NCBI GenBank assembly: GCA_021648085.1
Contig: JAKITS010000001.1
Location: 45,434-109,433, forward strand
Direction: 5' to 3'
Source: Candidatus Magasanikiibacteriota bacterium
GTDB lineage: Bacteria > Patescibacteriota > Patescibacteriia > Magasanikbacterales > UBA922
DNA: 64,000 bases
A program made the position numbers and the translations under genes. Below, piece after piece: positions 1 to 38,480 of the stretch. Below the pieces are notes generated by a model. The model was not told the DNA's origin. It searched no databases and saw only the letters and a list, made by a program, of their open reading frames with translations. Numbering within the stretch: position 1 is the stretch's first letter; each line of letters starts with the position of its first letter.

Positions 1-985
1 TTATTGGCGTTGGTATACAGAATTAACTTGGAAAAGATTAAACGCTTTACCAGAAGATGCGGTTGTAAATGTGGCAGTTGCTTTGCAAATTCCAATGGCA
101 CTCATGTTAAATTATGATGTTTGGGAAAGATTAATGTGGTATTTAGGATTAAGAACTTATGAAGAAAAAGAATTAGCAAGTCTTTATGTGAAAATTAGGG
201 ACGCTTTTATGAATTCAAGAGCGTTTTTGGGAAAAAGTAATGGAAAAGATTATGTAGTTCGTGATTTTGTGGAAAAAGTAAAAATTTTAGAAAGAAAAGA
301 TGAAGATAGTATCGAAACTGCAGAATTTTATGACAAAATTAGAACTATAATAAAAGAGCAGAGTTGTATTGTAAATAAGTATATAGAAGTTGATATAAAT
401 GATTTTATAAAAAGCTTAAGAAGTTTGGTTGCTTTTTTCCTGGGTGTTAAACCAGAAAATGCACCAAGTGTCGTAGAAATATTTATGTATCCAGAGTTAA
501 TAGAAGCCGCGGAAAAAACTGAAGAGTATCTTAAAAATTTAGAAGAAGAAAAAGAAGAAGTGTTAGAACCTAAAAAAGAAGAGGTTGTAGAAACTCCATT
601 TGTAGAAGAAAAACCAGCAGAAATTATTGAAGAATTAAAAGAGGAATTGGCTGTAGAAGAAAAAGTTGAACTTGAAAAAATAGAAGAAGTTCCTGTAGAA
701 AAAACTGTTGTGGAAGAAGCTTTAGTAGCTCCAGCTGAAGAAAAAGTCATTCCAACAAAAATCACAAAGCCTATTTTAGAAGAAAAGCCAGAAGAAAGTA
801 AAATGTCTTTGGAAGATATAAAAAAAATGATTGAGTCTAGGTTTGCAGATAAAGAGGGAAAAATAGAAAATATAGAAAGTGTGTTTACTTTGTTAAATTC
901 TATTGCAGATGATCAAAAAGATGAAAGTTTGCGAGAGCTGTATTATTTTGATGAAGAAAAAGGTGATTTTACTTGGAATATTTAA
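1..985 (+). CDS. hypothetical protein, 5'-partial (reading frame open to window edge), C-terminal E/K/V-rich low-complexity region
   Basis: ORF track 71..985 starts at GTG, but frame 2 is open back to nt 2 with no stop; acidic/lysine-rich tail; no recognisable domain. Confidence 0.45.
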   Translation, partial: YWRWYTELTWKRLNALPEDAVVNVAVALQIPMALMLNYDVWERLMWYLGLRTYEEKELASLYVKIRDAFMNSRAFLGKSNGKDYVVRDFVEKVKILERKDEDSIETAEFYDKIRTIIKEQSCIVNKYIEVDINDFIKSLRSLVAFFLGVKPENAPSVVEIFMYPELIEAAEKTEEYLKNLEEEKEEVLEPKKEEVVETPFVEEKPAEIIEELKEELAVEEKVELEKIEEVPVEKTVVEEALVAPAEEKVIPTKITKPILEEKPEESKMSLEDIKKMIESRFADKEGKIENIESVFTLLNSIADDQKDESLRELYYFDEEKGDFTWNI

Positions 986-2742: not shown

Positions 2743-3174
2743 ATGCCCCAGCAATTTGTAGTCCCACAATTTATAGATGTAGAAGACAAAATTTTTGGTC
2801 CAGTCACAACTAGACAATTCTTGATTTTGTTGGTGACTGCACTGATACTTTTTATTATTTTTAAACTTGCTGATATTGTTTTATTTGGTTTGCTAACTTT
2901 ACTTTTGGGTGGTTTTTCACTCGTTGTGGCTTTTGTAAAAGTAAATGGTCAGGCTTTTCATTATTTTATATTAAATATTTTTCAAACACTAAAAAAGCCT
3001 GGGTTGCGTGTGTGGAAAAAAGATTATTCAAAAGAAGATTTGGAATATTTGAGAAAATTTGGAATGAAAGAAGAAATAGAAGAAGAGCAGAAAAAAGAAA
3101 TAACAACACATAGAAAAATTAGAGACCTATCCCTAATTGTAAACACGGGTGGGTTTTATAAAGGAGAAGAATAA
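2743..3174 (+). CDS. small two-TM membrane protein, PrgI/VirB3-like T4SS component
   Basis: 143 aa, two adjacent hydrophobic helices, immediately upstream of VirB4-like genes (gene order typical of Gram-positive-type T4SS). Confidence 0.4.
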   Translation: MPQQFVVPQFIDVEDKIFGPVTTRQFLILLVTALILFIIFKLADIVLFGLLTLLLGGFSLVVAFVKVNGQAFHYFILNIFQTLKKPGLRVWKKDYSKEDLEYLRKFGMKEEIEEEQKKEITTHRKIRDLSLIVNTGGFYKGEE

Positions 3175-3176
3175 AT

Positions 3177-3860
3177 ATGGTTAAAAATAAAAAAAGTAAA
3201 AAAAGTAAAAAACCAGCAAGTCAGTCTTATCTTCCTATTGCACAGATAAAAGACGGTGTTGTTGTTTTGAAAGACGGGACAATGCGTTCTGTACTTTTGG
3301 TTTCAAGTATCAATTTTGCGCTTAAATCTGAAGATGAGCAAAATGCACTGATTTCTTCTTATGCTAGTTTTTTGAATTCTTTGGAATATCCTTTGCAGGT
3401 TGTAATTCAGTCTAGAAAATTGCAAATTCAGCCATATATAGAAAATTTGCTAAAAATGCAAAAAGAACAGACAAATGAATTGCTGAAAGCACAGATAGGT
3501 GACTACGGATCTTTTATAAGTGAATTGGTGGATATAGGAGAGATAATGTCCAAGCGTTTTTATGTGGTGGTTCCGTATGATCCGCTATCAAATAAGAAGA
3601 AAAGTTTTTGGTCTAGATTTCAAGAAGCTGTAAAACCGGTAACATCGATAAGGTTGAAAGGTGAGAGATTTGATAAAAGAAAAGAAGACTTGTCATCGCG
3701 CGTTCGGCAGGTAGTTTCTGGACTGGGAAGTATGGGCTTGCAGGTTGCGGAGCTAGATACACAGGCTTTGGTAGAGCTTTATTATTCAACATATAATCCT
3801 GATATAGCTTATGCGCAACAACTTCAGGATATAAATAAGATTCAAGTTGAACAGATTTAA
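3177..3860 (+). CDS. VirB4/TrbE N-terminal-domain-like protein (split from ATPase domain)
   Basis: motif '..LPIAQIKDGVVVLKDGTMRSVLLVSSINFALKSEDEQ..' resembles N-terminus of Gram-positive conjugative VirB4 homologues; stop TAA is 2 nt before next ATG (translational coupling or frameshift). Confidence 0.45.
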   Translation: MVKNKKSKKSKKPASQSYLPIAQIKDGVVVLKDGTMRSVLLVSSINFALKSEDEQNALISSYASFLNSLEYPLQVVIQSRKLQIQPYIENLLKMQKEQTNELLKAQIGDYGSFISELVDIGEIMSKRFYVVVPYDPLSNKKKSFWSRFQEAVKPVTSIRLKGERFDKRKEDLSSRVRQVVSGLGSMGLQVAELDTQALVELYYSTYNPDIAYAQQLQDINKIQVEQI

Positions 3861-3862
3861 CT

Positions 3863-5752
3863 ATGGCATTTAAACCAATTTCTACAAAACAAAAAAATAT
3901 TCCAGGACTCAAGAAAGGGGATAAGAAAACAGAAGAATTAAAAGTCCAAAAAGAGTTAGTTAGTCTGGAAGAAGAAAGAGTTTTTCGTTCTGGGACAGTT
4001 GCAATCAAAGACTTAATTGCACCTTCTGCATTCAAAGTTGATTCTAGTTTTTTGCAGTTGGGCGATGTATTTTTGAGAACTATTTTTGTAATTTCTTATC
4101 CAAGGTATATTGCAGTTGGTTGGAGTTCTCCTATTTTGAATATGAGCATTACCATGGATATCTCAATGTTTTTTTATCCTATAAAAGCGGAGATAATTTT
4201 GAAACAACTAAAGAAAAAAGTGGGAGCATTGCAGGCACAACTTAGCTCTGACAGAGAAAAAGGAGCACCAAGAGATCCACTGCGAGAAACAGCTTTGCGA
4301 GATATAGAAAAACTTAGAGATGATCTTACGCAAGGTGTTGAACATTTTTTCCAATTTGCATTTTATACTACAATTTATGCAAAAAGTAAAAAAGAATTAG
4401 ATAAATTGAGTGAAGATGTAGAAAGTGTTTTTGGTTCTACTTTGATATATAGTAAGCGTGTTTTGTACCAAGCAGAACAGGGATTCAATTCTACTGCACC
4501 ACTTGGAATAGATGAGCTGATGGTTGCATTCAATATGAATTCGTCTCCTATTGCATCATCATTTCCATTTATTTCTGCAGAGCTTACAAGTGATAATGGT
4601 GTACTTTATGGTATAAATAGACATAACAATAGTTTAATTCTTTTTGATAGATTTAGTCTACAAAATGCAAATATGGTTGTATTTGCAACATCTGGAGCTG
4701 GAAAATCATATGCAATTAAACTAGAGATTTTGCGTAGTATGATGTTTGGTACAGATGTGATTGTAATTGATCCGGAAATGGAATATAAACATTTGAATGA
4801 TGCGGTTGGTGGGACTTATATAAATATTTCTCTTTCCTCTGAAAGTAAAGTAAATCCATTTGATTTACCGAGACCTGTTGGGCAAAAGATTTCCACAGAA
4901 GATGTTGTTAGGAATGCAGTTATTACAATGAAAGGTCAGCTTAGAATAATGTTTGGTAAAATATCTCCGCAAGAAGATTCTGTTTTAGATAGAGCATTGA
5001 TAGAAACTTATGCTAAAAAAGACATAACAGCAGATTCAGACTTGGCGACAGTAGAGCCACCAATTATGCAGGATTTATTGGAAATTTTGGAAGGTATGGA
5101 AGGTGGAGAAAATTTGGTTTTGAAACTTCGTAAATACACAGAAGGAACTTTTTCAGGACTTTTCAATTCTCCAACTAATGTAAATGTAAATAACCAGCTT
5201 GTAATTTTTAGTGTGCGTGATTTAGAAGATGAATTAAGGCCGGTTGCTTTATATTCTCTTATAAATTATATTTGGAATGTTGTACGATCAGAAAGAAAGA
5301 AGAGATTGTTGATTATCGACGAGGCTTGGTGGCTTATGATGCACGAAGATAGTGCTAAATTTATCTTTGCACTTGTAAAAAGATGTAGAAAATATTATCT
5401 TGGAATTACTACAATTACACAAGATGTAAACGATTTTTTACGATCACCGTATGGACAATCTATTGTAAACAACTCTTCACTTCAGCTTTTACTCAAACAG
5501 TCTCCATCTGCAGTAAACTTAATACAAAAGACTTTTATGCTTACAGAAGGCGAAAAGTTTTTACTTTTGGAAAGTGCAGTTGGCGAGGGGATATTTTTTG
5601 CAGGTCTAAAGCATGCTGCCATTAAAATCGTAGCATCTTATACAGAAGATCAACTAATTACATCTGATCCAAAACAGCTTTTGGAAATTGAAAAATCCAA
5701 AAAAGAATATGAAGAAAAACTTCTGCAAGATAAAGGTGAAGAAACTAAATAA
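3863..5752 (+). CDS. virB4: VirB4/TrbE/CagE-family type IV secretion ATPase (C-terminal ATPase portion)
   Basis: Walker A 'VVFATSGAGKSYAIK', VirB4-type Walker B 'LLIIDEAWWLM', 629 aa. Confidence 0.75.
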   Translation: MAFKPISTKQKNIPGLKKGDKKTEELKVQKELVSLEEERVFRSGTVAIKDLIAPSAFKVDSSFLQLGDVFLRTIFVISYPRYIAVGWSSPILNMSITMDISMFFYPIKAEIILKQLKKKVGALQAQLSSDREKGAPRDPLRETALRDIEKLRDDLTQGVEHFFQFAFYTTIYAKSKKELDKLSEDVESVFGSTLIYSKRVLYQAEQGFNSTAPLGIDELMVAFNMNSSPIASSFPFISAELTSDNGVLYGINRHNNSLILFDRFSLQNANMVVFATSGAGKSYAIKLEILRSMMFGTDVIVIDPEMEYKHLNDAVGGTYINISLSSESKVNPFDLPRPVGQKISTEDVVRNAVITMKGQLRIMFGKISPQEDSVLDRALIETYAKKDITADSDLATVEPPIMQDLLEILEGMEGGENLVLKLRKYTEGTFSGLFNSPTNVNVNNQLVIFSVRDLEDELRPVALYSLINYIWNVVRSERKKRLLIIDEAWWLMMHEDSAKFIFALVKRCRKYYLGITTITQDVNDFLRSPYGQSIVNNSSLQLLLKQSPSAVNLIQKTFMLTEGEKFLLLESAVGEGIFFAGLKHAAIKIVASYTEDQLITSDPKQLLEIEKSKKEYEEKLLQDKGEETK

Positions 5753-5757
5753 AATAT

Positions 5758-6324
5758 ATGGAAGATATTAGAAAAAGACTTTTAATTATAATAGGATTGG
5801 TTTCATTTACTGTTATTATTGTAGTTGTGATTATATTAGCCGTTACAGGAGGAGAAAACAAAGGCACTCAACAGGTGGAAGATCTGCAACAAGAAAATGT
5901 AGAAGAAATTTTTGAGATAGAAGAAGTGGTCAAACGAGCTCCAACTGTAGAAGATATGCCACCGCAAAATCCAGAAGAGGTGAGTGCAAAACAGACTGCG
6001 CGTCTTTTTGTAGAGAGGTTTCAGACTTATTCAAATCAAAACGATAATAAACATATAGATGATGTGATACATTTGGTCACAGATAGTATGGCTGTGTGGG
6101 TAAGAGCTCAAAAAGTAGACAAAAGTTTGGATTATGAGGGTGTTACAACTCAAATTTTAGCTAGCAATGTATCAAATTTGGAAAGTAGTAGTGTGACCGT
6201 AAATATAGAAGCACGACAGACAGTGGAAAATAGTGAAGGGGAGAATACAGAGCAAAAAAGTGGTAGAATAGAGCTTGTAAAGGTTTCTGGAGAGTGGAAA
6301 GTGAGTGGATTTTTTTGGGATTAA
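5758..6324 (+). CDS. N-terminally membrane-anchored protein with NTF2-like soluble domain; possible VirB8/PrgL-like T4SS component
   Basis: single N-terminal TM helix, ~150-aa extracytoplasmic domain ('ARLFVERFQTYSNQ' NTF2/SnoaL-like), position right after VirB4. Confidence 0.3.
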   Translation: MEDIRKRLLIIIGLVSFTVIIVVVIILAVTGGENKGTQQVEDLQQENVEEIFEIEEVVKRAPTVEDMPPQNPEEVSAKQTARLFVERFQTYSNQNDNKHIDDVIHLVTDSMAVWVRAQKVDKSLDYEGVTTQILASNVSNLESSSVTVNIEARQTVENSEGENTEQKSGRIELVKVSGEWKVSGFFWD

Positions 6325-6457
6325 AAAATCAAATTAAGCAAAACATAAAAAAGAGGGGAATCCTTCTTTTTTATATTTTGGTTTTTTCTAGCTTTTGACT
6401 TAATTTTAAAAATATATTATTTTGAGCAAAAAAAGTAGTCTCTTATTTAACTTGGAC

Positions 6458-6781
6458 CGCGTCATATTGAGCGAAACGAAGTGGAGTCGAAATATCTCAA
6501 AAAAGTATAACCAGAATTATGAATATTTTATGTTCTTATGATTCTGTTTCGAGATCCATTCGACTTCATTCCGCTTTGCTACATTTCGCTCAGGATGACG
6601 TGAATATTTTACGTCATCCTGAGCGGAACGAAGTGGAGTCGAACGGATCCCTGTGCAGTATAACCAGAATATAAATAATTAAAATAAAACGTTAGTCCGT
6701 CTTTCTTTTTGTTCTTTGTTAATTGATAATTGCTAGTTTTGTGAAACTGTTTCGAGATCCTTCGGCTTCGCTCAAAATAAT
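6458..6781. repeat. cluster of 4 copies (mixed orientation) of dispersed intergenic repeat family, core CACGTCAT(C/A)(C/T)TGAGCG-[variable CGAAG-rich]-GGATCTCG(AAAC)
   Basis: copies at ~6458-6498 (+), 6544-6602 (-), 6612-6661 (+), 6749-6780 (-, partial); same family recurs at 15.7, 60.6, 62.7-63.1 and 63.9 kb. Confidence 0.75.
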
Positions 6782-6830
6782 ATCTTAAAAATCGAGTTTT
6801 TTACTTTATGAACTTTCGACTTAAATAAAT

Positions 6831-7532
6831 ATGCAATTTTTAGAGAAAATAAATAATTTTCTAAAGGAAACACTGTTTCCAATTTTTTGTTTGGGTTGTG
6901 ATACAGAAGGTAAGTGGATTTGCGACAATTGTAGATTTAGTTTTGATACAAATGGAATTTTTTTGTGTGCGGTTTGCAAAACACATACAGTTTTTGGAAA
7001 AACTTGCGATAAATGTAAGAAAAAGACAAATTTAGAATCTGTTTGTGCGGTTTTCAATTTCAAGAAAAATTTAAATGCTAGCAATCTGGTAAGTATATGG
7101 AAATATCAATACGCAGAAGAATTGGTAGAAAACATTGATAATTTTGCGCAAGAATTTGCTCGAAGTAATTTTTCTTTATTTTTAGAAATAGATGCGATTG
7201 TTCCAGTTCCACTTCATCCGCGTAGGTTTGCTGAGCGCGGTTTCAATCAGGCTGAAATAATAGCACAAAGTTTGTCAAAAGTTTTGGAAAAACCAGTTGT
7301 GAATTTGTTGAAAAGAAAAAGATATACAAAACAACAAGCAAAATTGAAAAAACACAAAAGAATAAAAAATGTTGTTGGAGCTTTTACCACGCAAAAAGAT
7401 TTTCAAAAATATAATAGAGTTTTGTTGGTGGATGATGTTTACACCACAGGTAGCACAATAAATGAATGCGCAAATGTTTTGCACAGTGGAGGTGTGCAAA
7501 CTGTGGATAGTTTTGTTCTTGTTCGTGGATAA
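6831..7532 (+). CDS. comFC: ComF-family competence protein (phosphoribosyltransferase domain with N-terminal Cys4 zinc finger)
   Basis: N-terminal CxxC..CxxC..CxxC..CxxC; PRTase motif 'VLLVDDVYTTGSTINE'. Confidence 0.8.
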   Translation: MQFLEKINNFLKETLFPIFCLGCDTEGKWICDNCRFSFDTNGIFLCAVCKTHTVFGKTCDKCKKKTNLESVCAVFNFKKNLNASNLVSIWKYQYAEELVENIDNFAQEFARSNFSLFLEIDAIVPVPLHPRRFAERGFNQAEIIAQSLSKVLEKPVVNLLKRKRYTKQQAKLKKHKRIKNVVGAFTTQKDFQKYNRVLLVDDVYTTGSTINECANVLHSGGVQTVDSFVLVRG

Positions 7533-9475: not shown

Positions 9476-9560
9476 TCCTCTCACTCCGATTCGAGCATAA
9501 ATACTGCGCGTACTCGTATCCTTCTCATCCAGACACGAGTAAAGATTTTTACTCGTTCCC
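9476..9560 (-). repeat. tRNA-downstream conserved element (GGATGAGAAGGATACGAGTACGCGCAGTAT..GGAGTGAGAGGAATCC on minus strand), copy downstream of tRNA-Ser(GCT)
   Basis: shares ~55 nt with two tandem copies at 9673-9898. Confidence 0.7.
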
Positions 9561-9568
9561 TTTCTTTG

Positions 9569-9658
9569 CGGAGAGGGCGGGATTCGAACCCGCGGTCCGG
9601 GAAATACCCGGACAACACATTAGCAGTGTGCCGCTTTCGACCACTCAGCCACCTCTCC
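9569..9658 (-). tRNA. tRNA-Ser (anticodon GCT), long variable arm
   Basis: cloverleaf readable: acceptor GGAGAGG/CCTCTCC, D-arm GCTGAGTGGTCGAAAGC, anticodon loop CTGCTAA, T-arm GGGTTCGAATCCC. Confidence 0.85.
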
Positions 9659-9672
9659 AGTATTTTTTGTTT

Positions 9673-9898
9673 TTTAAATTCTTGTGGAGAGAGTGGGATT
9701 CCTCTCGCTCCGACTCGAGCCTGGATACTGCGCGTACTCGTATCCTTCTCATCCCACACACGACACAAGACTTTGTGTCGCTTCTATCCTGCGGAGAGAG
9801 TGGGATTCCTCTCGCTCCGACTCGAGCCTGGATACTGCGCGTACTCGTATCCTTCTCATCCCACACACGACACAAGACTTTGTGTCGCTTCTATCCTG
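9673..9898 (-). repeat. two tandem 108-bp units, each = 18-nt copy of tRNA-Ser(TGA) 3' end (AATCCCACTCTCTCCGCA) + terminator-like hairpin + conserved ~55-nt element
   Basis: units 9673-9790 and 9790-9898 nearly identical; directly abut the 3' end of tRNA-Ser(TGA). Confidence 0.8.
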
Positions 9899-9985
9899 CG
9901 GAGAGAGTGGGATTCGAACCCACGGAGGGCGCAAACCCTCAACGGTTTTCAAGACCGCCGCCTTCGACCACTCAGCCATCTCTCC
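9899..9985 (-). tRNA. tRNA-Ser (anticodon TGA)
   Basis: acceptor GGAGAGA/TCTCTCC, anticodon loop CTTGAAA, long variable arm, T-arm GGGTTCGAATCCC. Confidence 0.85.
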
Positions 9986-10117
9986 AGTTTTATTTTTTAA
10001 AAATATTCAAACAATACGATAATAGTTTATCTTATTTTAAACAATAAGTCAATAGTTTTTATATTTTGTAAAAAACATAAAATATGATATAGTGATTGTA
10101 TATTCTTATATAAATCT

Positions 10118-25787: not shown

Positions 25788-27791
25788 ATGCTTGTCTGGA
25801 TGAGAAACAAAAAATTAGTCAAAAAAGCTACTGCAGTCTTTTATATTATGATTGCAGTGGTTTTTTTGTTTTCAATTTTTTCTTTTAGTGGTACCACAGA
25901 AGTTTACGCGCAAGGTGATACTTTTGGATTGGAGAGTGTTGACAGTGTCACAGAGCTTGCAACACAAGATATTCGCATAACAATTGCTAAAATAATACGT
26001 GTATTTTTAGGACTTTTGGGTATTATTGCTTTGAGTATTATTATTTACGGGGGTTTTACTATTATGACCTCTGCCGGCAACGAGGAAAAAGTTGCAACTG
26101 GAAAGAAAATACTTGTAAACGCTGTTATTGGGTTGGTTATTATCTTATCTTCGTTTGCTATTACTCAGTTTGTATTATCTTCACTCCAAAAAGCTACAGG
26201 AGGATTGGCAGGGCTTGGTGGAACAGCAAGAGCGCCAGGTATTCAAGTGTTTGCAGGTAGTGGATCTTTTGGAAAAATTATATCAGATCATTTTCCAGAT
26301 AGAGATCAAAGAGATGTAAGTAGAAATACAAAAATTTCTGTCACTTTCAATGAATCTATAGACCCTTCAAGCATTGCGATAGACTCAAATGGAAATGGGG
26401 TTTTTGGAGATTGTGTGACACCAGATTTAGCAGTTTTTGACTGGAATACTCAGTGCGATGTTTTAAATAAAGATGCTGTAAAGATTTATTCTAACGACGA
26501 CGCGGATTCTCTCATAGATTCTGCGGTAATAGTCACAGAAACAGATGGAAATATTCTTACTTTTACAATAAAACCTCTTGAATTATTAGGAAATCCAAAT
26601 GAAAATGTATGGTATACAGTAGATCTTACAGAAAAAATACTTAAAATAGATACAGGAACAAGTGTGTTTGATAATGACAGAGATGGGCATTATTTTTGGG
26701 AGTTTGAGGTGGGGACACTTTTAGATTTTGATCCGCCAAAAGTAACATCTGTTTTTCCTACTATGAATTTGGATGTTTCTAGAAATACAATTTTACAAAT
26801 AAACTTCAACGAGCCAATGGATCCCACATCTTTACAAGGTATTTCAGGTTCTGGTTTTACAAATATTATTTTTGGAGATACTGCTGTTTCTGGAGAATGG
26901 AGAATTACAAATGGTTACAAAACAGTAGAATTTGTGTCAACCGAAGCTTGTGGACAAAATAGCTGTGGAGATGTTATGTACTGTCTTCCTGTAGAATGTC
27001 CTGACACAGATTTAAATTGTACAGTTCCTTATGAAGTTTTGGTTCGAACTGCGGAGTTAATTTCAGAGAAAAATTCCGAGGCTATTCCTTTTACGGGTGT
27101 TATGGATATATCTGGAAATGCATTAGATGGTAATGCTGATGGTGTTTCAGACGGAAAACCAGTAATAGAAAATCCTATAATTTTGGATATTTCAGAAAAA
27201 GTACCCGATAATTATTTTTGGGAATTTGGTGTAATAAATGAAATAGACAGAACATCTCCATATATAGAAAATATTTTTCCAGGAATTGACCAGGAAAATG
27301 TAAGAGGGTCAGAGCCAATTGAAGTTGGTTTCAGTATGATTATGTGGTCATCATCTTTAAAACAGGCTGAAATACAGGAGTATCCAGCAAACGAGGGTGG
27401 AATGGCGGATATTTGGTTTAATATAGGGTCTAAGGTTGTGGCAGATTCAAATGGAATTCAAAAAACAAATATGATTATAAAACATAGAGAGTTTGGACCA
27501 AACGGTTTACCGCTTCATTATTTCTCGTCTGTTTCCAGTGATATTAAAAGTATAAACCAAAATTGTGTTTATCCTGGAAAAGGACCGAGTGGAGATAAAA
27601 ACACCTCACCAACTTGTGTTTACAAAGAAGATAAAGATGGTAATGTGGTAGAAGATTCAAATTGTACACCTGTAAATTTACAAGCTGATACAGACACCGG
27701 ATGTGTGCAAACTGCAGATCCAGAAGGGCTTACACAGCCAAACTTAGATGATTGTATTTCATTTTTAGAAAGTGTTAGTCAAATAGATTAA
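25788..27791 (+). CDS. surface protein with VirB2/TrbC-pilin-like N-terminal membrane domain and Ig-like/Cys-containing extracellular region (667 aa)
   Basis: signal peptide, 'DTFGLE..VTELATQDIRITIAKIIR', two hydrophobic helices separated by 'TSAGNEEK'; first ~125 aa ~60% identical to start of next gene. Confidence 0.5.
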   Translation: MLVWMRNKKLVKKATAVFYIMIAVVFLFSIFSFSGTTEVYAQGDTFGLESVDSVTELATQDIRITIAKIIRVFLGLLGIIALSIIIYGGFTIMTSAGNEEKVATGKKILVNAVIGLVIILSSFAITQFVLSSLQKATGGLAGLGGTARAPGIQVFAGSGSFGKIISDHFPDRDQRDVSRNTKISVTFNESIDPSSIAIDSNGNGVFGDCVTPDLAVFDWNTQCDVLNKDAVKIYSNDDADSLIDSAVIVTETDGNILTFTIKPLELLGNPNENVWYTVDLTEKILKIDTGTSVFDNDRDGHYFWEFEVGTLLDFDPPKVTSVFPTMNLDVSRNTILQINFNEPMDPTSLQGISGSGFTNIIFGDTAVSGEWRITNGYKTVEFVSTEACGQNSCGDVMYCLPVECPDTDLNCTVPYEVLVRTAELISEKNSEAIPFTGVMDISGNALDGNADGVSDGKPVIENPIILDISEKVPDNYFWEFGVINEIDRTSPYIENIFPGIDQENVRGSEPIEVGFSMIMWSSSLKQAEIQEYPANEGGMADIWFNIGSKVVADSNGIQKTNMIIKHREFGPNGLPLHYFSSVSSDIKSINQNCVYPGKGPSGDKNTSPTCVYKEDKDGNVVEDSNCTPVNLQADTDTGCVQTADPEGLTQPNLDDCISFLESVSQID

Positions 27792-27793
27792 TT

Positions 27794-30700
27794 ATGAGAT
27801 TGTTTAAGTCAAAATTTTTCCTATCAATATTTTTTACACTAGTTGTAGTTTCTTTATTTTTTGTTTCGGATATAACTGCTGTTTTTGCACAGCAGGCAGA
27901 TACTTTTGGTTTGGTGGAGGTCGGTCAAGTTACCGAGCTTGGAACGCAAGATATTCGTGTTACAATTGCAAAAATAATAAGAACACTCTTAGGTTTGTTG
28001 GGTGTTTTGGCTGTGTCTATTGTTTTATACGGAGGTTTTGTATATATGACTGCTGGCGGAAGTGAAGATAAACTTGGGCAGGCAAAGAAAATAATTATAA
28101 ATGGGGTTATTGGTTTGGTGATAGTTATGTCTTCTTTTGCAATTACACAGTTTGTCTTGTCGAGCCTTTCAGATGCAACAGGCTCGGGTAGTGTTGGGCT
28201 GTCTTCAAATAATTGTTCAAATACAGAATATGCTATAAACCATCCAAGTGAATGTTTTTCAAATTCAAATTCAGCTTGCACAAAATTTCCATCTTTTTGT
28301 AATTCAGCAGACTTCTTTTTTGTAAAAAGCATAACACCTTCTACACCAAACGGAGCAACAGGAATGAATAATATTGTTATAAGAGCAGTATTTAGTAAAT
28401 CTTTAGCATCAAATACAAATGTAGATTCTATATTTTCAGTTGAAAAAGATGGTATTTCTCAGCCTTTATCTATAAAACTTTCTCAATCTAGACAGGTGGT
28501 GGAGGCAACATTTAGAGCTACCACACCTTTGTGCGATGGGACTGTTCCACCAAATGAAACTTGTTTAGAGTTGGGTGATTTTACTATAAAAATTAATCCA
28601 GATATAAAAGACACAACAGGTAGAGAATTAACAAAAAATATAAATGGGCAGGAGTACCCTGTTTCAGCAGATTTTTCTGTGGATGTTGAGAACATAGACC
28701 ACACAAGACCAACTGTCACAAGTATGACAATAGATGGTTCAAATGCAGAAAATCAAAATATTACAATTGGAGATGCACATTCACTTAGAGTTGCAATGAT
28801 AGATAATACTGGAATTGGTTTTGTAAATATAAACATAAAAAATATAGACACAGGAAAAGTTATAGTAGAGTCTTTTGAGGGTCCAAATCCACTGGACGGA
28901 TCTTCTGGGGAATTTGTTATAGATTATCCTATTATATTGGGGGCTGATATAAATTCACTAGATAGATTTGATGTTTCTGTCACAATTTACGATATAGATC
29001 ATAATAGTAGTGTAAGTATTTTAAGCTTTATAGCTCTAGCAGAGAGCTGTACTAATGGTGTTCAAGATGGAGATGAAACAGGTGTTGATACTGGTGGTTC
29101 TTGCTCACTTTCTTCTGGTAGTTTTTGTGATGAAGATTGGCAGTGTGCCTCTCAAAAATGTGTAAACAACGAGTGTGTTGCTTGGCCAATGATTACAGAT
29201 ATTGATGCTTGGGATGGTGGATCTGGAAACTGGATTACAATTGCAGGACAGTTTTTTGGAGATAAGGAAGGTCTTGTTGAGTTTGGTACAGATTCCAATG
29301 GGGATGGCGAGATAAACGACTTAGATGTGTGGGTTAAAGCCGGTATTGCTATTTGTAGGAGTTTAACTACATGGAAAAACGATTGGATTGTAGTCCAGGT
29401 CCCAGATGATTCAGTTTTGCCAATAGGTTCAGAAAGTGCAATTCGTATTACTCTTGGAGACGGTACAGGGCTTAGTGATTCTACTGTCGATAGTCATGGT
29501 TCCATATCTGGACCAAACAATGGTTTGTTTACAAAAAACGAAATAAAAAGACCTAGTATTTGTGCCGTTGAATCTGTTTTGGGTTCTAATTCAGCAAAAC
29601 CAGATGCTGGTTTTGCTGTAATAGGAAAAAACTTCACAGACGATAAAACTGGAAATAAATTTGAGTTTGGTGGTGTAGAATTACCAACATTAATATGGGG
29701 AGATTTGGAAATTACAAGTAAAATACCGCTAAATACAAATGCTGGTAAGGTCTCTGTTCAGGTTGAGGTTGGTGGAGAAAGAAGTAATACAGTTCCTTTT
29801 ACTGTTTTGCCAATTGATAAAAATTTAATACCTTCAATTTCACTTGTAAACCCAGAAAATATAACAGTAGGAAGTTTTGTTACGCTTTCTGGAACTGGTT
29901 TTGGTGAAACAACAGGAATTGTTTATATATCTCCAAATTCTGGTGCTACTTGTACAGATATTTTGGCAGAAGGTTGTATTCAGGTGGAAGTTTCTTTACC
30001 AAATTTTTGTGGAGATACTTGGAGCTCTAATCAGGTTATTATAAAAATTCCAGATAACACACAATTTGGTGTGTACTATTTGGTTTTACAAAATGATTTT
30101 GGACTTCGTACAGATGGATCAGCTTTTGTTTCTGTTGTTGAGGGAGACCCTAGTCCTAGCATTTGTAAGATGATTCCACAGGCCGGGCCAGCACCACTGC
30201 CTGTTGGACATCAGGGTTTAGAATTTTTTGGGATTAACTTTTCTACAGACCCAACAGTATATTTTTGGTCTAAAACCGCAACAGAAGACGATCTTAATAC
30301 TTGGTTGAACGCAACAGGGAATGATGTAAATCAAATAGATCCGGATACTCATATTGTGAGTTATATCCCGAGTACGATAGAAGGATATTCAATGAAAACA
30401 GGTCCAATTGCCATCAGCTCTATCGATGGTGTTGTTAGTAATGCTGTAAATTACGAGGTTTCAGATTGTCGTGATGTTGGTGCTCCTGTTGGGTATCAGT
30501 GTTGTTCTGTTGGGCCAGACGCTGGAACAATAAAACCAAATGAATTTATTTGTGCAGGAGAGACAAGAGATGCTGGCTATGCTTGGAGATTTACGAGTGG
30601 TCTCCTGCCAAATATACCTTTTGTGGTCGAACAGTGCCCAGAATCAAGCGGTTCCGGAGTACCATCTCCAAGTCCCTGGATAAATAGAAAGCAGGGAGCA

Positions 30701-33700
30701 AATACTTGTTTAAATGCTTTGCCAACAGTTTTGTTTAGTGTGGGAATGAGTGATAGCTCACTTTCAGGAAATATTAGAGTTATTACTTGTGGAGAAGATA
30801 GTTTGCCACAGTGTGAAGATGAGGATATTTTTATTGATGTGTCTGCAGATTTTTCTGCTGGTCTGCGGTCTGAAGGATTTGTTTTAAACTTAACTAATAG
30901 TAATGGGGATTTAACACCAAACACTTGGTATAGGGTTGAACTTGGAAGTGGTTTGCAATCTCAAGAAATTAGGAGTATTTTGGGTATAGATCAGACAGTA
31001 AATGAAAACCTTTTAAAAACAAAATCTTGTGGAGACGGAACTTCTTATTGTTTTGAATTTAAAACAGGAGAAGGTTTATGTACCTTAACTTCTGCAGGTA
31101 TAATGCCAGGTACTCATACAACAAAAATACTAGGTCCTGTTTTGGACAGAAGATTTTCAAAAGAAAGTGAAACTTCACTGTTCTACCATATATTTGGAAA
31201 AGGAGATCAAGAGTGCACGGTTTTAGATGTTGATGGTTTCGGCTGGGACTGGAAGAGTCAAGATGATAATAAGGCAACTGTTGAGATAAGTGTTGGAGAT
31301 GGTTTTGTAGATACTAGAGCAATTGTAAATGCTATAGAAAATACAGCACCAGGAGATGTGAATATTTTTGCAATTTCAAGTAATTCACCTATCTCTCCTG
31401 TAAGTAGTTTAATTATAGATTTAGCAGATCCAAAAGTAGAATCGTATTGGCCAAACTGTGCAGAATCTTGTGTAAATAGTGGTGTTGGTGTCAAATTCAA
31501 CAGAGATATGAATGTTGCTGAATTTGTTTCAAATTTTAGGATAAGTGAGTGTATAGATGAATTTTGTAGTATCACATCAACCATCCCAATACAGTTTGAA
31601 ACTCTGAAAAAAAATAATTTAAATGTATTTCCTGTTGGAAATCTACAGCCAAACACTTGGTATTTTGTAGAGGTTTTTCCAGGAATTCATGCTATAGAAA
31701 AAGAAAATCCTCTTACTTATGGTAAAACAGTGGAAGCTTTTTCTTGGAAGTTTAGAACAAAAAATGACAGTACACTTTGTGGGATTGAGGATGTTTTGGT
31801 TGCCCCAACAAAATATATATCGCGTTTAATAGGAGATAGAAAAGAATATAAAGCAACTCCAATGAGTTTAGCAAATGAGTGTAGTTCTGCTGGACAAAGA
31901 TTAAATCCTTGGAATTTTGCATGGGGTTGGGAGGTCGTGGATACTCAAATAGCTAGTATCTCCTCTTTTGAAACTTTTGGAAAGTCAAAACCATTTTGCA
32001 CAACCTCTTGTTTGTTGGCAGGAAGTGTTGTGAGTTCAGATACTCAAAATGTAACTGCTTTGTGTGGAAATGGGATATTGGAGAGTGGGGAAGACTGTGA
32101 GTTGGATGACCCAGAAGAAGTATTAGGGGTTAGCTGTAGTTTAAGTTGTAAAAGAGTTGGGTCTGTAGCACCAACTTGTGGAGATGGGAGGATAGAATCG
32201 GCAAAAGGTGAGCAATGTGATACAGACGATGCTCTAACAGCCGAGGCTTGTAATGATAATTGTTTGTGGAAAGGTTCTTCAAAAGTAGAGCCAAAATCAA
32301 CAGCGCTAAATATTTCTTGGTGTGGAAGTGGTTCTGTAACATTTGGCGAAAGTTGTGATATTAAAGATCCGCTAACGCAAGATAGATGTTCAAATAAGTG
32401 TTTGAATTTGGGAACGCCTATCTCAAGTTATTGGTGTGAGCAAAATAAAACAAACGAATTACCAGACACAACTTTGGTAGGGCAGTCTGCAGAGTGTTTA
32501 TCTTCTGTAAGTATTTGTGGAAACGGATTATTGGAAAATGGAGAAGCTTGTGAAATCATTGCTAGTACTACTGTTGCGTTTGTGGGTGTTGGAAATGTTA
32601 CAGTTTCAAATGCTTCAGATGTTTGCTCTACTTCTTGTTTAGTTTCAAATGCTTGTGATGAACCAAACATGCCAACCTCAATAAGCTGTGATCCAAAGAT
32701 AGAGGAAGGTTGCACGCCAGAGTGTCTAAATTCTGGCTCATCTCTCGACTATTCAACACCTAGTCTGTGTAACGATGGAATTGTAGGGTTAGGGGAAGAT
32801 AGTTTATGTGAATTATCATCTACCGTACCTTTTGGTCAAAATCCATTGCAAATTGTAACAGCTATTGGAGATGGTGTTGTAAATCCAGATACAAATTCTC
32901 AAGATACACAAATAAGAGCTAGAGCTACAAAAACAAAAGATATAAATGGAAATCCTGTTGATATATCATCAGAATATGGAGAATCTTTATATTCATTACA
33001 GTGCGGATATACAAAATTTGAAGAGCTAATAAATAATAGATTTAACGACTGCCCTAATGCTATTGATGGTGTTGCTACGAACTCTTGTTGTTATACCAGA
33101 CCTCAAAGAGTAAGTGAGTATCCTGTGGATGGTTCTGGGATTGGAAATTCTAGTGCACCAGTTTGTTTGAATTCTTTTATAGAGGTTCATTTTGATGAAG
33201 AGATAAGCAAGTCTTCTGTAAGTGAAAATATATTATTAGCAAAAGGTTATCCGGGTGGATATGATTGTTCTGTAAGTGGAGAGGATAATGTGACAGAACA
33301 GGTGAGAAATTTACTTACTTTGCAAGAAGTAAAAGATGGAATTTGGACAAGGGTTTGGAAGGTTATAAAAAGATTTTTTACAAAAGCTGTTGGTTTGGAA
33401 GTTTTTGCAAGTATGTTTAGTGATTCAGATGTAGAGGTTTGGTGTGTGGGATCTGCAAATTTTAGAACAGATGTCTTGTATGAGGAAGATGTTGATGGAA
33501 ATATACTTTCCACAGATATTTCTATTTCTTTAACAAAGCTTTTGGATGTAGATACTGTTTATGCTGTAGTTTTGAAAAATGAAATTGAAAATTCTGAAGG
33601 TGTTGGAATATCTAGTCCAGATAGTTTAAGTGGTACTTTGGATGATTCATGGATTTTTAAAACTGGAGACGAGGTTTGTAAGATAGACAGCGTTTTTGTA

Positions 33701-36700
33701 AGACCGAGTGCAAAATTATTTGTAAAACCAAACACAACTAGCACTTTTTTTGCATTAGCTCAGAGTACTTCAAAACAAAGAATTGTGCCAATTGAAAATG
33801 TGTATGATTGGGAATGGCATTGGGCACCATTAAATAATGCAATTTTTGATATTTCTGCTTCAACTAGTTCTATAAATATAATAGCTTCTAAAGATTTAGA
33901 AGGAAGTGTTCTTGCAAGTGCAAATGCTGTAATTACTCACGACGCAGATCAAAACAATAGTCAGTTTGGAGAGTATTTTACCGGAATTACAAAATTGTTT
34001 GCTTTATTTTGTGAGAATCCTTGGCCACAATACGAATATTTTCCTTTTGAAGAAGGTATATCTTTTGGATCTTTGGGAAATATAAGTGGTTTTGAGCGGG
34101 GAGTTTTTGATGGCTCTACAATTCCAAAAGTTAGAATAGGTGGAGTATTTGAGTACTTTAATTTCAGTATGTCTTATTGTGCGGATAGTGGATCTTCTGA
34201 TAATAAAGCAGACGATCTTCCGTTCCTAAAACCTATTGTTCTTGTAAATGAATTTGATGTAGTTTCTGGTAATTTAGTTCAAGTTGGTGATAAAAGTTTG
34301 TCTGAGGATACTTTAAAAAAATTCTTCTTTTTCAATGAAAAAAATGATGATGTAATTGGTGTTCAAATTTTTATGAATCCGCTCAGGCTTACTGCCCGTG
34401 AATGGTATATAGAAAAATTTGGATCAGACATTGGAATGGATCAAATAACAGTTGCAGGTTATGATGCGTTGTCAGATAATAATAGTATTTATATAAACGC
34501 ACTAAATCAAGGTTCAAATGGAGATATTTATAATAATATTTACTTATTCAGTTTAAATGGAAGTGCGCAATCAAACACCCGTGAAGTTTTTGATATGTTG
34601 ATGGACTCACTTAAAATGAATATAAATATAAGTGAGTTTAATAGTTGCTCACAAGATGGGGATTTTAACACACCAAATATACAAGAAACAGTAGAGTGTA
34701 GCACAGACTTCGAATGTTTAGATGTTGCAGATTCTGGAGGGGTTTGCGCAAATGCACAGACAAAATTCAAAAGAGATTGGACGCGTCTAACAGACTTAAG
34801 GAATACTCAAGAAAAATTAGATTTTTATAAATTAGAAAATAATTCTTATCCAAAATTAGCTTCTGGATCTTTTATTCCAAACTACACAGTTTCCAAATGG
34901 TCATCTTGGGGAAACTTAAGTAATCTAATTGGTGGAGCGCCGTTAGATCCAGTAAACAAGTGGTCCGATTGTGGTGATTTGGATCCACAGACTTGTTGGG
35001 CTGCAGATGTTTCTGAATATGTTTGTCCAGAAAAAACTAGTGTGTACGAATATTCTTTTGACAGTATAACTAGTGATTACACGCTTCACATCCCTTTTGA
35101 ATATTTTGATTTATCCTCATCTGTAGTTTCAGGATTTTTGGACACTTCAAAAATTAAAATAGACAGGTGGTGTACACCGGGCGACATATATAACCCATCT
35201 TCTGGTGTGTGTGGAGATGGTGTAGTAAATGTTGGTGAACAGTGCGACCCTCCAAATTCTATAAATTACACAAATCAAGGTGTGGTTGGATCACAACAAT
35301 CTGGTTTTTGTGCAGATAGTTATTTGAACCAATCTATTTCTTGTATAAATTCAGCAGATTGTGGTTTATATTTGAATGTTGATGTTGAGCGATCAAAAAA
35401 GAGTATTTTTTCAGATACTGGTTCTGTTTGTTTCGGTGGAGTAGCAAAAGATTTACCATACGACATTTTAGCACATAAAAATGATGAAAGTAAATTATAT
35501 GGAATTAGTTGCCAAACATCTTCTGATTGTAAGTCTAAGGAAAATTATTTTAAAAATTTAACAGCAGGCGGATCTGGTGTACTTGGATTGTACAATGTTC
35601 AAAATGATAGTTTTGCTGAAGAGTCTTTAATTGGTGAATTTATATATAAAAACTTAGATGGAATAAAATGTCTTTCTTTACGGGATTTAGATATAGAATT
35701 TAGAAATGCTGGAAGTGGGACAAGGGGTACAAAACCTGTGGAGTGTAGTATTTCTACAAGTAATCCAATAATTGGATCTTGTAATAATGTAGGAGAATTG
35801 GCGCCAGCTCAGTGTACAGATAAGTGTACAATTAAATATGGAAGTTGTACTTCTTTTACAGACTGTGGAAACGGAAGGGTCGAAATTGGAGAAAATTGTG
35901 ATGATGGTGTAAAAAATGGAGAGTATGGAAGTTGTAATTTAACTTGTGATGGAGTTAGTGATCAGTATTGTGGAAATGGTCAAAAAGATGGTGCAAATGA
36001 AGTTTGTGATATAAATAATTTGGGTTTATCTGGATATTGTAGCAAAGATAAAAACATAAGCTGTTCTGATGATTTGGATTGTGGTGAGGTTAGAAATTTT
36101 GGTAGTTGTGGATATGAATATGTTTCTAATGTTCTAAAGCCTGTGTGTTCCTCAATAGATAGTAATGGTAATGTCCAACTTTCAAATTATCAGAATGGAA
36201 CGCAAGTGTTTTGTTATGACAACAGTTGTGATAAATTCGATAAAATTTATGGAACTTGTATTGCATCAAGTGATCCAACATACAGTTTTAATAAAGATAA
36301 TACTTGCGCTTGGGATTGTCAGGATTTTGGAGATTATTGCGGAGATGGAATTGTGCAAGGTGATTACGAAGCTTGCGATGATGGAAATTCAATAGACGAT
36401 GACAGTTGTGATAATTTTTGTGAAATTAATCTTTTAGCTACCACAAGTCAAGCAAGCTCTGCACCAAGTTGTGGAGATGGTGTGGTAGAAGAAGATGGTA
36501 CAGAAACTTGTGATTTGGGAGAGGATAATGGAATTAAATGTAGTCCATCTTATGGAGAATCTTGTAGTTACTGTTCACTAGATTGTGAAAATATTTTGAC
36601 AGTGGACCCTGTCGCGTATTGTGGAAATGAGACTGTTGATTTTAAATTTAATGATTTTAGTGATTGTTCAGATACTGGGAATATTTGCTTATCCGAACCT

Positions 36701-38403: not shown

Positions 38404-38480
38404 ATATAATTATTAAAAATAAGAAATTTAAAAGTTTCGTAATAAAATTAAGCTTACCAAAAAATTCATAATATAAAAAT

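Follow-up and report, generated by a model that had tools for sequence, protein, structure and literature searches.

Type IV secretion systems (T4SS) of Patescibacteria were described between 2023 and 2025. In passages of PMC12102498 (Quinonero-Coronel 2025), these systems combine PrgI, TrsD and VirB4 with VirB2-like pilins and lack a relaxase, and 2425 of 2474 Patescibacteria VirB4 proteins fall into a single clade. The same passages report that VirB8 homologues are concentrated in the class ABY1, to which Magasanikbacteria belong, that comF, recG and radA are common near virB4 in ABY1 loci, and that coupling proteins occur elsewhere in many Patescibacteria genomes. In Southlakia epibionticum the T4SS is encoded by SEML1_0006-0019 (Wang 2023, PMC10633639), and according to parts of that paper these homologous genes are essential by Tn-seq. 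As summarized in part of a review (PMC12857230), Southlakia can do without comEC but not without its T4SS, and owes its competence to type IV pili.

The window analysed here, a stretch of 64 kb from a 984-kb contig, belongs to the chromosome of Candidatus Magasanikbacteria (Patescibacteria, class ABY1). It holds another ordinary copy of this known system, namely the membrane core of the chromosomal, non-conjugative T4SS carried by nearly all ultra-small Patescibacteria (CPR). More precisely, the block is very probably the cytoplasmic-membrane core operon of this chromosomal, vertically inherited and non-conjugative T4SS, in its class-ABY1 (Magasanikbacteria) form. The first-pass annotation had described a T4SS-like block of PrgI, VirB4 N-domain, VirB4 and a VirB8-like protein. 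These four ORFs lie exactly where it had placed them, all on the + strand and spaced 2-5 nt apart, with PrgI and the CD1110-type VirB4 above cutoffs. As a set of four, the block gives way to a larger one: across 80 related genomes the conserved unit comprises eight genes, in the order extended VirB6-like protein, two orphan soluble proteins (up1 and up2), PrgI, TrsD, VirB4, VirB8-like protein and ComF. The features of the window are the following.

1..985, +, up1 (cluster 6), conserved soluble orphan gene, 3' part only, from the alignment with L001
995..2686, +, up2 (cluster 3), conserved soluble orphan gene, 563 aa, directly upstream of PrgI
2743..3174, +, PrgI/VirB3-like small membrane protein, two-helix hairpin, 143 aa (Pfam PrgI)
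3177..3860, +, TrsD-like protein, the VirB4 N-terminal domain as a separate polypeptide, 227 aa (VirB4 models)
3863..5752, +, VirB4 ATPase, central and C-terminal domains, 629 aa (NCBIfam conju_CD1110, PDB 4AG5)
5758..6324, +, VirB8-like bitopic protein: TM helix 2-30, disordered linker 32-61, NTF2-like domain 72-187
6325..6830, no strand, spacer peculiar to the window's genome, 506 nt, with a terminator-like hairpin and a small repeat element
6831..7532, +, ComF (ComFC/GntX-type): N-terminal Cys-rich zinc-ribbon region and phosphoribosyltransferase domain (TIGR00201)
25788..27791, +, surface protein of 667 aa: signal peptide, VirB2-like two-TM pilin module, Ig-like (Big_5) domains (Pfam T4SS_pilin)
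27794..37981, +, giant surface protein of 3395 aa: N-terminal VirB2-like pilin module, Big_5, TIG and DUF4215 regions (Pfam T4SS_pilin)

The comparison covered 81 loci (80 related genomes beside the window) with neighbourhoods of +/-10 kb; counts for PrgI and ComF refer to loci with room for the gene. Relatives are encoded in 520 genome stretches. The unit was found in every related genome locus retrieved and is kept across at least 65 genomes, with a constant gene order and median gaps of 3-18 nt, while its flanks vary freely. Part of this conserved adjacency is phylogenetic inertia, as the relatives are fairly close (VirB4 73-93% identical among many species). Together with intact motifs and conserved synteny, that level of identity points to vertical inheritance under selection.

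How do the individual proteins fit a T4SS? The ORF at 2743-3174 reaches 31.1 bits with Pfam PrgI (gathering cutoff 27), contains a hydrophobic hairpin of two helices, and has a counterpart in 75/75 related loci, at a median identity of 59%; by analogy, the protein is presumed to be the membrane anchor for VirB4. The next ORF has no TM segment and aligns only with the N-terminal part of VirB4 models: positions 90-233 of 894 in VirB4_plasma (E 4e-12), 9-91 of 752 in CD1110 (E 5.5e-7) and 3-174 of 792 in VirB4_CagE, with a further match to the TrsD/TraD model (E 1.2e-7). It stays under all full-length cutoffs, as a fragment would. The following ORF matches NCBIfam conju_CD1110 at 338 bits (cutoff 325) over profile positions 171-728, the very part missing from the TrsD-like ORF, so that the two ORFs tile the VirB4 models. 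They are separate in 75/75 loci (median gap 7 nt), and the closest Bacillota VirB4 is adjoined by an equally split TrsD-like ORF.

The VirB4 ORF carries both motifs that had been quoted for it, a Walker A ATSGAGKS (aa 275-282, nt 4685-4708) and a Walker B LLIIDEAWW (aa 482-490, nt 5306-5332), whose G/K/S and D/E/W/W residues are invariant in 81 aligned VirB4 sequences. Among solved structures, its product comes closest to the VirB4 C-domain of Thermoanaerobacter (4AG5, E 3e-47); further matches are P-loop_TraG (E 1.4e-27) and, in the PDB, TrwK (E 5e-5). The CD1110 score and that of the Mycoplasma-ICE model (Mbov_0397, 269 bits), set against F-type TraC (182 bits) and VirB4_CagE (117 bits), suggest a monoderm affinity, and the annotation was right to call the core Gram-positive in type, the best models being the monoderm CD1110 and Mycoplasma ICE families. 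At least 8000 homologues reach E<=1e-20, and among the named ones the nearest come from Magasanikbacteria/Patescibacteria; the top plasmid matches listed, none above 35% identity, all belong to Bacillota or Actinomycetota, and the best of them shows the same TrsD-VirB4 split. The reading as a monoderm-type (MPF-FATA-like) core, its VirB4 split and accompanied by an NTF2/VirB8-like protein, is supported.

The last of the four ORFs encodes a bitopic VirB8-like protein with an NTF2-like domain, as expected of a T4SS. In Magasanikbacteria this protein is recognisable by its fold. VirB6, which like VirD4 and VirB11 had been reported as not visible, is a different matter from the other two: VirD4 and VirB11 are indeed unmatched in the window, but 65 related loci carry an extended VirB6-like polytopic protein (~1000 aa, ~7 TM segments) two genes upstream of PrgI, and the corresponding gene is predicted to sit just off the window's left edge, beyond position 1. 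Members of this VirB6-like family show weak matches below cutoffs to TrbL/VirB6 (6/25, best 8.7e-5) and CD3337/EF1877 (5/25, 1.4e-5); a PDB profile search returned no match.

Between the VirB6-like gene and PrgI lie the two orphans. The 5' end of up1 is cut by the window edge: by the alignment with L001 the gene begins ~165 nt before position 1, and the GTG at 71 is not its real start. It occurs in 70/81 loci, always on the + strand and between the VirB6-like gene and up2, and has no TM segment, no Pfam or PDB match and no known family. The second orphan, up2, occurs in 75/81 loci at a median of 5.5 nt from PrgI. Its conserved parts are an N-terminal motif and a helical C-terminal region, and it contains a PEPK tandem repeat (nt 1478-1599). 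The protein likewise has no TM segment and matches no Pfam, NCBIfam or PDB family; its AlphaFold model reaches a pLDDT of only 45 and is unusable.

At the other end of the unit, the comF that had been noted downstream is confirmed (TIGR00201 at E 2.9e-31, covering positions 1-190 of a 190-position profile but under NCBI's cutoff; GntX at E 1.5e-27). It is the last gene of the unit, present in 62 of the 63 loci with room, and the gene that follows it is of 44 different kinds among 64 loci. In relatives the gap from the T4SS genes to comF has a median of 6 nt and exceeds 150 nt in 5/69 loci only. In the window the two are parted by the 506-nt spacer, which contains direct and inverted repeats and, at 6345-6374, the terminator-like hairpin, making co-transcription of comF with the T4SS genes doubtful in this genome.

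The suggestion that the system is dispersed also holds, since T4SS_pilin domains in the proteins starting at 25788 and 27794 exceed the Pfam cutoff. The 667-aa protein scores 31.5 bits and the 3395-aa protein 32.9 bits with PF18895 (cutoff 26.6); with the NCBIfam Mbov_0395 pilin-like family they reach 45.7 bits (cutoff 40) and 33 bits, the latter below cutoff. A dispersed T4SS with VirB2-like pilin modules ~20 kb from its core is therefore supported. When relatives of the module were searched for exhaustively, proteins of at least 2000 aa accounted for 72 of the best 150; sizes of more than 5000 aa occur in relatives. Judged from sequence, the VirB2-like module often stands at the N-terminal end of a giant surface protein, and the Mycoplasma-ICE pilin-like protein is a member of its family.

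Could the block be something other than a resident T4SS? One reading makes the ATPase a HerA/FtsK-type or archaeal Ced-type DNA pump with unrelated small membrane proteins as neighbours. It can draw on weak matches, confined to the P-loop, with DUF87/HerA at 29.5 bits and CedB at 44.6 bits (E 8e-12). The scores of VirB4 models are higher by a factor of five to ten, one of them above a curated cutoff, and each neighbour has an independent identity, namely PrgI (above cutoff), a VirB4 N-domain and a VirB8 fold. The Ced system (CedA/CedB) does share a VirB4/HerA-like ATPase, serving DNA import rather than export, but the block has PrgI and VirB8-like partners in place of CedA-like ones. Model scores, the 4AG5 match and the identities of the neighbours effectively refute such a pump; the test by which the annotation itself could have been overturned leaves it standing. 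Another reading sees in the block a piece of an integrated conjugative element or of a decayed plasmid transfer region, with conjugative DNA export as its present or past role. In its favour, conjugation systems supply the closest characterised families (CD1110/CTn2, Mycoplasma ICE, pGO1 TrsC-TrsD-TrsE), and 1815 of 2291 plasmid records with a VirB4 match are predicted to be conjugative. We find this reading scarcely credible all the same. SMC, ClpP, FtsA/FtsZ, tRNAs and tmRNA in the same window mark the locus as chromosomal and not a plasmid conjugation locus, as the annotation had proposed. No scanned ORF of the window matches VirD4, VirB11 or relaxase families, and its unannotated ORFs contain no P-loop. 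No relaxase or coupling protein (VirD4/TcpA-type) appears, either, among the gene clusters that recur within +/-10 kb in 10 or more related loci, several of which lack an assigned family. No integrase was found in the window or within +/-10 kb of the 80 related loci, where one recombinase family occurs in 4 loci; neither mobile-element boundaries (integrase, att repeats) nor a patchy distribution was seen, and the flanks are varied and of housekeeping type. The high VirB4 identity among numerous species, together with preserved synteny and intact motifs, speaks against a mobile element too, and only 109 relaxases are reported for 3035 Patescibacteria genomes in passages of PMC12102498. Conjugation as the role of the block is thus very unlikely.

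What, then, would a resident T4SS do? Following established T4SS architecture, PrgI would tether VirB4 to the membrane, and the VirB6-like and VirB8-like proteins would make up the channel and scaffold that cross the single membrane and the wall. Hydrolysis by VirB4 could then power the extraction of VirB2-like modules and their assembly into a filament or anchor on the cell surface, as well as the passage of macromolecules at host-cell contact. H. pylori ComB is a DNA-uptake T4SS with VirB2, 3, 4, 6 and 8 homologues and VirB4 as its sole ATPase; it does without a coupling protein or relaxase, acts together with ComEC and ComFC in transformation, and belongs to the diderm MPF-T lineage with VirB7, 9 and 10. 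We take the component set of the block (VirB2, 3, 4, 6, 8) to be that of ComB minus the outer-membrane parts. We tentatively favour, at somewhat less than even confidence, a ComB-like uptake in which DNA would pass to ComF and from there, presumably, to ComEC and DprA. Protein export or attachment to the host ranks just behind. The shared component set argues for uptake, as does the fact that neither relaxase nor coupling protein turned up in the window or in the +/-10 kb around related loci. At the sequence level, general VirB4 homology is the only affinity to ComB that was seen, and the window contains neither comEC nor dprA. DNA uptake is also favoured by the place of comF inside the conserved unit and by the common presence of comF, recG and radA near virB4 in ABY1 loci, as reported in PMC12102498 in part. 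The spacer with its hairpin, which splits comF from the T4SS genes in the window's genome, counts against it. The same machine may instead work outwards, displaying VirB2-type pili or adhesins and/or exporting proteins into or onto a host bacterium for epibiotic growth, as proposed for Saccharibacteria, the adjacency of comF then being incidental. This is possible, if not probable. It agrees with the split of comF from the operon and with the two large surface proteins bearing N-terminal VirB2-like modules in this genome, and with Southlakia, where, in the parts of the sources cited above, the homologous T4SS and pilin array are essential to epibiotic growth and comEC is not, so that the essential role of the homologous system is not ComEC-dependent transformation. 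Yet the unit shows no effector-like genes, coupling protein or substrate receptor, comF stays attached to it while both flanks vary (44 different neighbours), and the ABY1-wide association of comF, recG and radA would be left unexplained. A bolder version of DNA uptake, which we regard as unlikely, would make the ABY1 T4SS a ComB/Ced-like importer of host DNA or nucleotides through a VirB6/VirB8 channel to ComF, with up1 and up2 as lineage-specific cytoplasmic receptor or motor adaptor replacing the coupling protein, and VirB2-like modules anchoring giant adhesins in the T4SS filament to catch the host. If true, this would add a new functional type to the monoderm T4SS and give auxotrophic epibionts a mechanism to obtain nucleotides.

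Set beside the Patescibacteria-clade T4SS of PMC12102498 and PMC10633639, as far as their passages go, the system shows no essential difference: it is chromosomal, with PrgI/VirB3, TrsD and VirB4, a candidate VirB6-like protein, VirB2-like pilins and no relaxase in the window, and shares with ABY1 specifically its detectable VirB8 homologues and a comF adjoining the T4SS genes. Unlike the Southlakia locus in those passages, the block has no peptidase or lysozyme gene after virB4. Beyond these passages go the two orphan soluble proteins between VirB6-like protein and PrgI in Magasanikbacteria, the VirB8-like protein in essentially every Magasanikbacteria locus (76/81), and pilin modules fused to 667- and 3395-aa proteins, as against arrays of small pilins. 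This T4SS class matters because it is nearly universal in a phylum holding a large share of bacterial diversity and, in the one species tested, is reported to be essential for epibiotic growth. The locus adds only detail to it (an eight-gene unit with comF, a VirB8-like fold, two operon orphans and pilin-module giants), which could guide experiments on DNA import and leaves the published picture unchanged.

Conjugation systems of the MPF-FATA group (pGO1/pSK41 TrsC-TrsD-TrsE, pIP501 TraC-TraD-TraE, CTn2 CD1110, pCF10 PrgI-PrgJ-PrgL) have in common with the unit the order VirB3-like, TrsD-like, VirB4, a VirB4 of the CD1110 family, a VirB8-like NTF2 protein and the lack of outer-membrane components and VirB11. 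In contrast to them, the unit has no relaxase, coupling protein, VirB1-type hydrolase or PrgB-type surface adhesin, and is chromosomal and vertically inherited, with VirB2-like pilin modules and comF. To the Mycoplasma ICE it is linked by the VirB4 and TrsD ORFs, which match the Mbov_0397 model (269 bits; 4e-12), and by the window's pilin module in the Mbov_0395 family; the Mycoplasma T4SS, unlike the Magasanikbacteria unit, resides on a mobile ICE. Both the Mycoplasma ICE and Pontibacillus loci have a large peptidoglycan endopeptidase and lack comF and a VirB8-like gene after virB4. The Pontibacillus genes lie on a non-mobilizable replicon of 898 kb, which encodes, in this order, two pilin-like proteins, a 779-aa membrane protein, a VirB3-like protein, a TrsD-like protein and a VirB4 of 35% identity.

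The locus is a typical ABY1 instance of a type IV secretion system (T4SS) already known from Patescibacteria, as that system is described in the portions of Quinonero-Coronel et al. 2025 (PMC12102498) cited here, and the details worth passing on are two orphan operon members, giant pilin-module fusions and the Mbov_0395 membership of the pilin module. That work sampled 3035 Patescibacteria genomes and found VirB4 in 2417 of them, with 2425 of the proteins grouping in a single clade inside MPF-FATA. TrsD is the most abundant partner, VirB3 is of the PrgI type, VirB6 homologues are present, and the few VirB8 homologues fall almost all in ABY1, according to the same portions (PMC12102498). Magasanikbacteria are an order within this class (PMC12577380).

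In the window, four ORFs with a spacing of 2-5 nt make up the core. The first-pass annotation had read them as a T4SS block, and the ORF list, profile searches and an 81-sequence alignment bear out the block, its coordinates and its Walker A and B motifs.

2743-3174, + strand: PrgI; Pfam PrgI, 31.1 bits against a threshold of 27
3177-3860, + strand: TrsD-like; matches N-terminal VirB4-model positions only
3863-5752, + strand: VirB4 ATPase; CD1110 positions 171-728, 338 bits against a cutoff of 325
5758-6324, + strand: VirB8-like protein (ORF4)
6325-6830: insertion of 506 nt separating comF from the VirB8-like gene, missing from most relatives

The ORF at 3177-3860 matches positions 90-233 of 894 of VirB4_plasma (E 4e-12), TrsD/TraD (1.2e-7) and positions 9-91 of 752 of CD1110. 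Since its matches and those of the next ORF cover complementary portions of the VirB4 models, the two tile one VirB4. Among solved structures, the ATPase comes closest to the C-domain of the Thermoanaerobacter VirB4 (4AG5, 3e-47) and next to R388 TrwK; Walker A (ATSGAGKS) lies at aa 275-282 and Walker B (LLIIDEAWW) at aa 482-490, and all 81 aligned sequences share the G/K/S and D/E/W/W residues of these motifs. Profile scores rule out a HerA, FtsK or Ced identity, so that the initial preference for VirB4 over an FtsK/HerA-type ATPase was right. ORF4 was identified as VirB8-like through fold comparison only, and a profile search of its alignment against the PDB gave no match. Together, the PrgI score above threshold, the CD1110 score above cutoff and the 4AG5 match support the interpretation as a T4SS core. 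In pGO1-type plasmids the genes run trsC-trsD-trsE, which is the order of PrgI, TrsD and VirB4 here. TrsD is described as specific to the pGO1 subclass in the text consulted (PMC12102498).

A Candidatus Magasanikbacteria MAG encodes, on a contig of 984,181 bp, proteins that match the ATPase and ORF4 at 100% identity (ORF4 locus tag L3J07_00230). The ATPase has at least 8000 homologues at E<=1e-20, the best 120 of which show 76-94% identity. We clustered the ORFs of 80 related loci from species-representative genomes, which did not include the source genome (520 confirmed stretches in all). The core proposed at first as minimal holds the right genes but falls short in extent, because the conserved unit comprises eight genes, not four, on a single strand, and the median distances between neighbours are 3-18 nt: VirB6-like, up1, up2, PrgI, TrsD, VirB4, VirB8-like and ComF. 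The VirB6-like protein (~1000 aa, with ~7 TM segments and an extended tail of hydrophilic residues) is found in 67 loci, PrgI and TrsD in all 75 with room for them, the VirB8-like gene in 76 of 81 and ComF in 62 of the 63 with room. Median identity to the window proteins is 76% for VirB4, 64% for TrsD, 59% for PrgI, 38% for ComF, 32% for the VirB8-like protein and 27-29% for up1 and up2. The unit is sharply bounded, as the neighbours vary on both sides: 44 different clusters among 64 loci lie 3' of ComF, and 44 among 54 loci lie 5' of the VirB6-like gene. Flanking genes examined include glycosyltransferases, cysteine desulfurase, an ABC ATPase and similar. In one related locus (L031), a PF05635 gene (23S rRNA intervening-sequence/four-helix-bundle, Avd-like) at 9568-9960 is inserted between trsD and virB4; thus, the operon tolerates small insertions.

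The left part of the unit is cut by the window.

1-985, + strand: up1
995-2686, + strand: up2

The left edge falls within up1, whose alignment with one related locus (L001) extends ~165 nt further upstream, so that one would look for the VirB6-like gene just past that edge. VirD4, VirB6 and VirB11 had all been noted as absent from the window; this holds within the window, where VirD4 and VirB11 have no family match, but the candidate gene for VirB6 probably lies just outside. The VirB6-like protein matched nothing above threshold in Pfam, NCBIfam or the PDB. Of 25 members, 6 showed sub-threshold similarity to TrbL/VirB6 and 5 to the mobilome membrane family CD3337/EF1877, and hhalign gave a weak alignment (probability 37%) with a 779-aa membrane protein of Pontibacillus. 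The name thus reflects topology, position and weak matches, and the protein is a candidate rather than a proven VirB6. In 70-75 of 81 loci, up1 and up2 separate the VirB6-like gene from PrgI; neither protein matched anything in Pfam, NCBIfam or the PDB. They have no TM segment and carry low-complexity acidic/lysine-rich and PEPK-repeat linkers, with a tandem repeat at 1478-1599. A word-index search with the up2 C-domain found a single protein, and the AlphaFold model built from two sequences (pLDDT 45) was unusable. We consider both proteins candidate lineage-specific T4SS components.

Two surface proteins of the window carry pilin modules.

25788-27791: 667-aa protein; signal peptide and two-helix module passing Pfam T4SS_pilin
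27794-37981: 3395-aa protein; signal peptide and two-helix module passing Pfam T4SS_pilin

In both, Ig-like/TIG-rich extracellular regions follow the VirB2-like two-TM module. In the 80 loci, the 10 kb on either side of virB4 contain no pilin module, so the early description of the system as dispersed was apt. An exhaustive search with the module recovered 27,840 representative clusters (E<=1e-3). Of the 150 top relatives, 72 reach 2000 aa or more, the longest having 5289 aa, 32 have 600-1200 aa and 27 have fewer than 300, and some relatives carry 2-8 modules in tandem. Giant pilin-anchored adhesins seem to be a recurrent class, and we found no discussion of them in the portions of the T4SS literature on such systems that we cite. 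Directly 3' of the giant fusion gene, at 38029-39344, are two proteins with bacterial thrombospondin type-3 (TSP3) calcium-binding repeats, which could be components of that surface structure as well.

The module of the 667-aa protein (25788-26198) also passes NCBIfam Mbov_0395 (45.7 bits against a cutoff of 40), the 'pilin-like conjugal transfer protein' family of Mycoplasma ICEs, and the window module is 40% identical to a Pontibacillus pilin-like protein (4486-5398 of that locus, L081) adjoining the closest Bacillota VirB4. Within the portions cited, VirB2-like pilins (PF18895) are reported in Patescibacteria T4SS and stated to be absent from MPF-FATA-type systems (PMC12102498). The latter statement is contradicted here, since the Mbov_0395 membership and the Pontibacillus neighbour argue that such pilins are not absent from all of these systems. 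The Mbov_0395 membership suggests that part of MPF-FATA has VirB2-like pilins of its own and did not borrow them from diderm systems.

What is established for the locus is its parts list, gene order, conservation and intact ATPase motifs. From general T4SS knowledge, we envision that PrgI would anchor the two-piece VirB4 at the membrane, that the VirB6-like and VirB8-like proteins would provide channel and scaffold through the single membrane and wall, and that ATP hydrolysis would drive assembly of the VirB2-like module and passage of macromolecules at cell-cell contact.

What passes is a matter for weighing. The parts list equals that of ComB, the Helicobacter pylori DNA-uptake T4SS, without its outer-membrane components and without coupling protein or relaxase, and comF sits inside the conserved unit whereas both flanks vary. 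Both points lean towards DNA uptake of the ComB type, a putative role in the ABY1 lineage that we hold tentatively, as plausible but short of probable. So does the gathering of transformation and recombination genes at ABY1 loci, where comF, recG and radA are commonly close to T4SS genes in the text available (PMC12102498); neither radA nor recG was among the ten flanking gene clusters scanned near virB4 in Magasanikbacteria loci. Against it, the synteny sample is of modest evolutionary depth, and here comF is parted from the T4SS genes by the 506-nt spacer, in which lie a terminator-like hairpin and a small repeat element. The main rival, protein export or host attachment, is only slightly less plausible, and it finds its footing in Southlakia, an epibiotic species in which Tn-seq showed the homologous cluster and pilins to be essential for epibiotic growth, in the part of Wang et al. 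2023 consulted (PMC10633639). There, comEC is dispensable, so the essential T4SS role is not ComEC-dependent transformation (2025 review, PMC12857230), which also counts against DNA uptake.

Conjugation is very improbable as a role, despite the pGO1-like gene order. Coupling-protein, VirB11, relaxase and integrase families match no window ORF, and the unannotated window ORFs contain no P-loop; the gene clusters that 10 or more related loci share in the surrounding +/-10 kb, several of them without an assigned family, include none of these functions. Only 109 relaxases are counted in the 3035 Patescibacteria genomes, and coupling proteins are seldom near virB4, in the portions cited (PMC12102498). 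An ICE or plasmid-remnant origin is likewise rejected on genomic context and conservation: the window is a low-GC (~32%) chromosomal segment with housekeeping genes (SMC, ClpP, ribosomal protein S16, HisRS, FtsA/FtsZ, pyruvate kinase, PPDK, IF3, L20, SmpB), five tRNAs and one tmRNA.

Outside Patescibacteria, the VirB4 relatives among the plasmid-collection matches listed come from Bacillota and Actinomycetota at <=35% identity. The best match, in Pontibacillus sp. ALD_SL1 (NZ_CP062975.1, 350-361 kb), lies on a non-mobilizable 898-kb replicon beside chemotaxis and flagellar genes, in the order two pilin-like proteins, the 779-aa membrane protein, VirB3-like, TrsD-like, VirB4 and a large M23 endopeptidase (1050 aa). 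Plasmid records that carry a TrsD-like match are predicted to be non-mobilizable in 59 of 66 cases. Non-conjugative relatives of the Patescibacteria-type T4SS may exist in Bacillota too.

Besides its hairpin, the spacer holds nested inverted repeats, an outer pair of 20-nt inverted repeats (6411-6430 / 6767-6786) and a 32-nt unit in two copies (CGTCATMYTGAGCGRAACGAAGTGGAGTCGAA) with a degenerate third copy at 62702-62724. By sequence, it looks like a small MITE-like element. A promoter scan did not rise above background, giving 25 sites where shuffled sequence leads one to expect 28.7. Further on, two tRNA-Ser genes lie on the minus strand (GCT 9568-9658 and TGA 9898-9985, region 9481-10047), and because of similar sequence between and around them the ORF list shows several overlapping ORFs there that are spurious.
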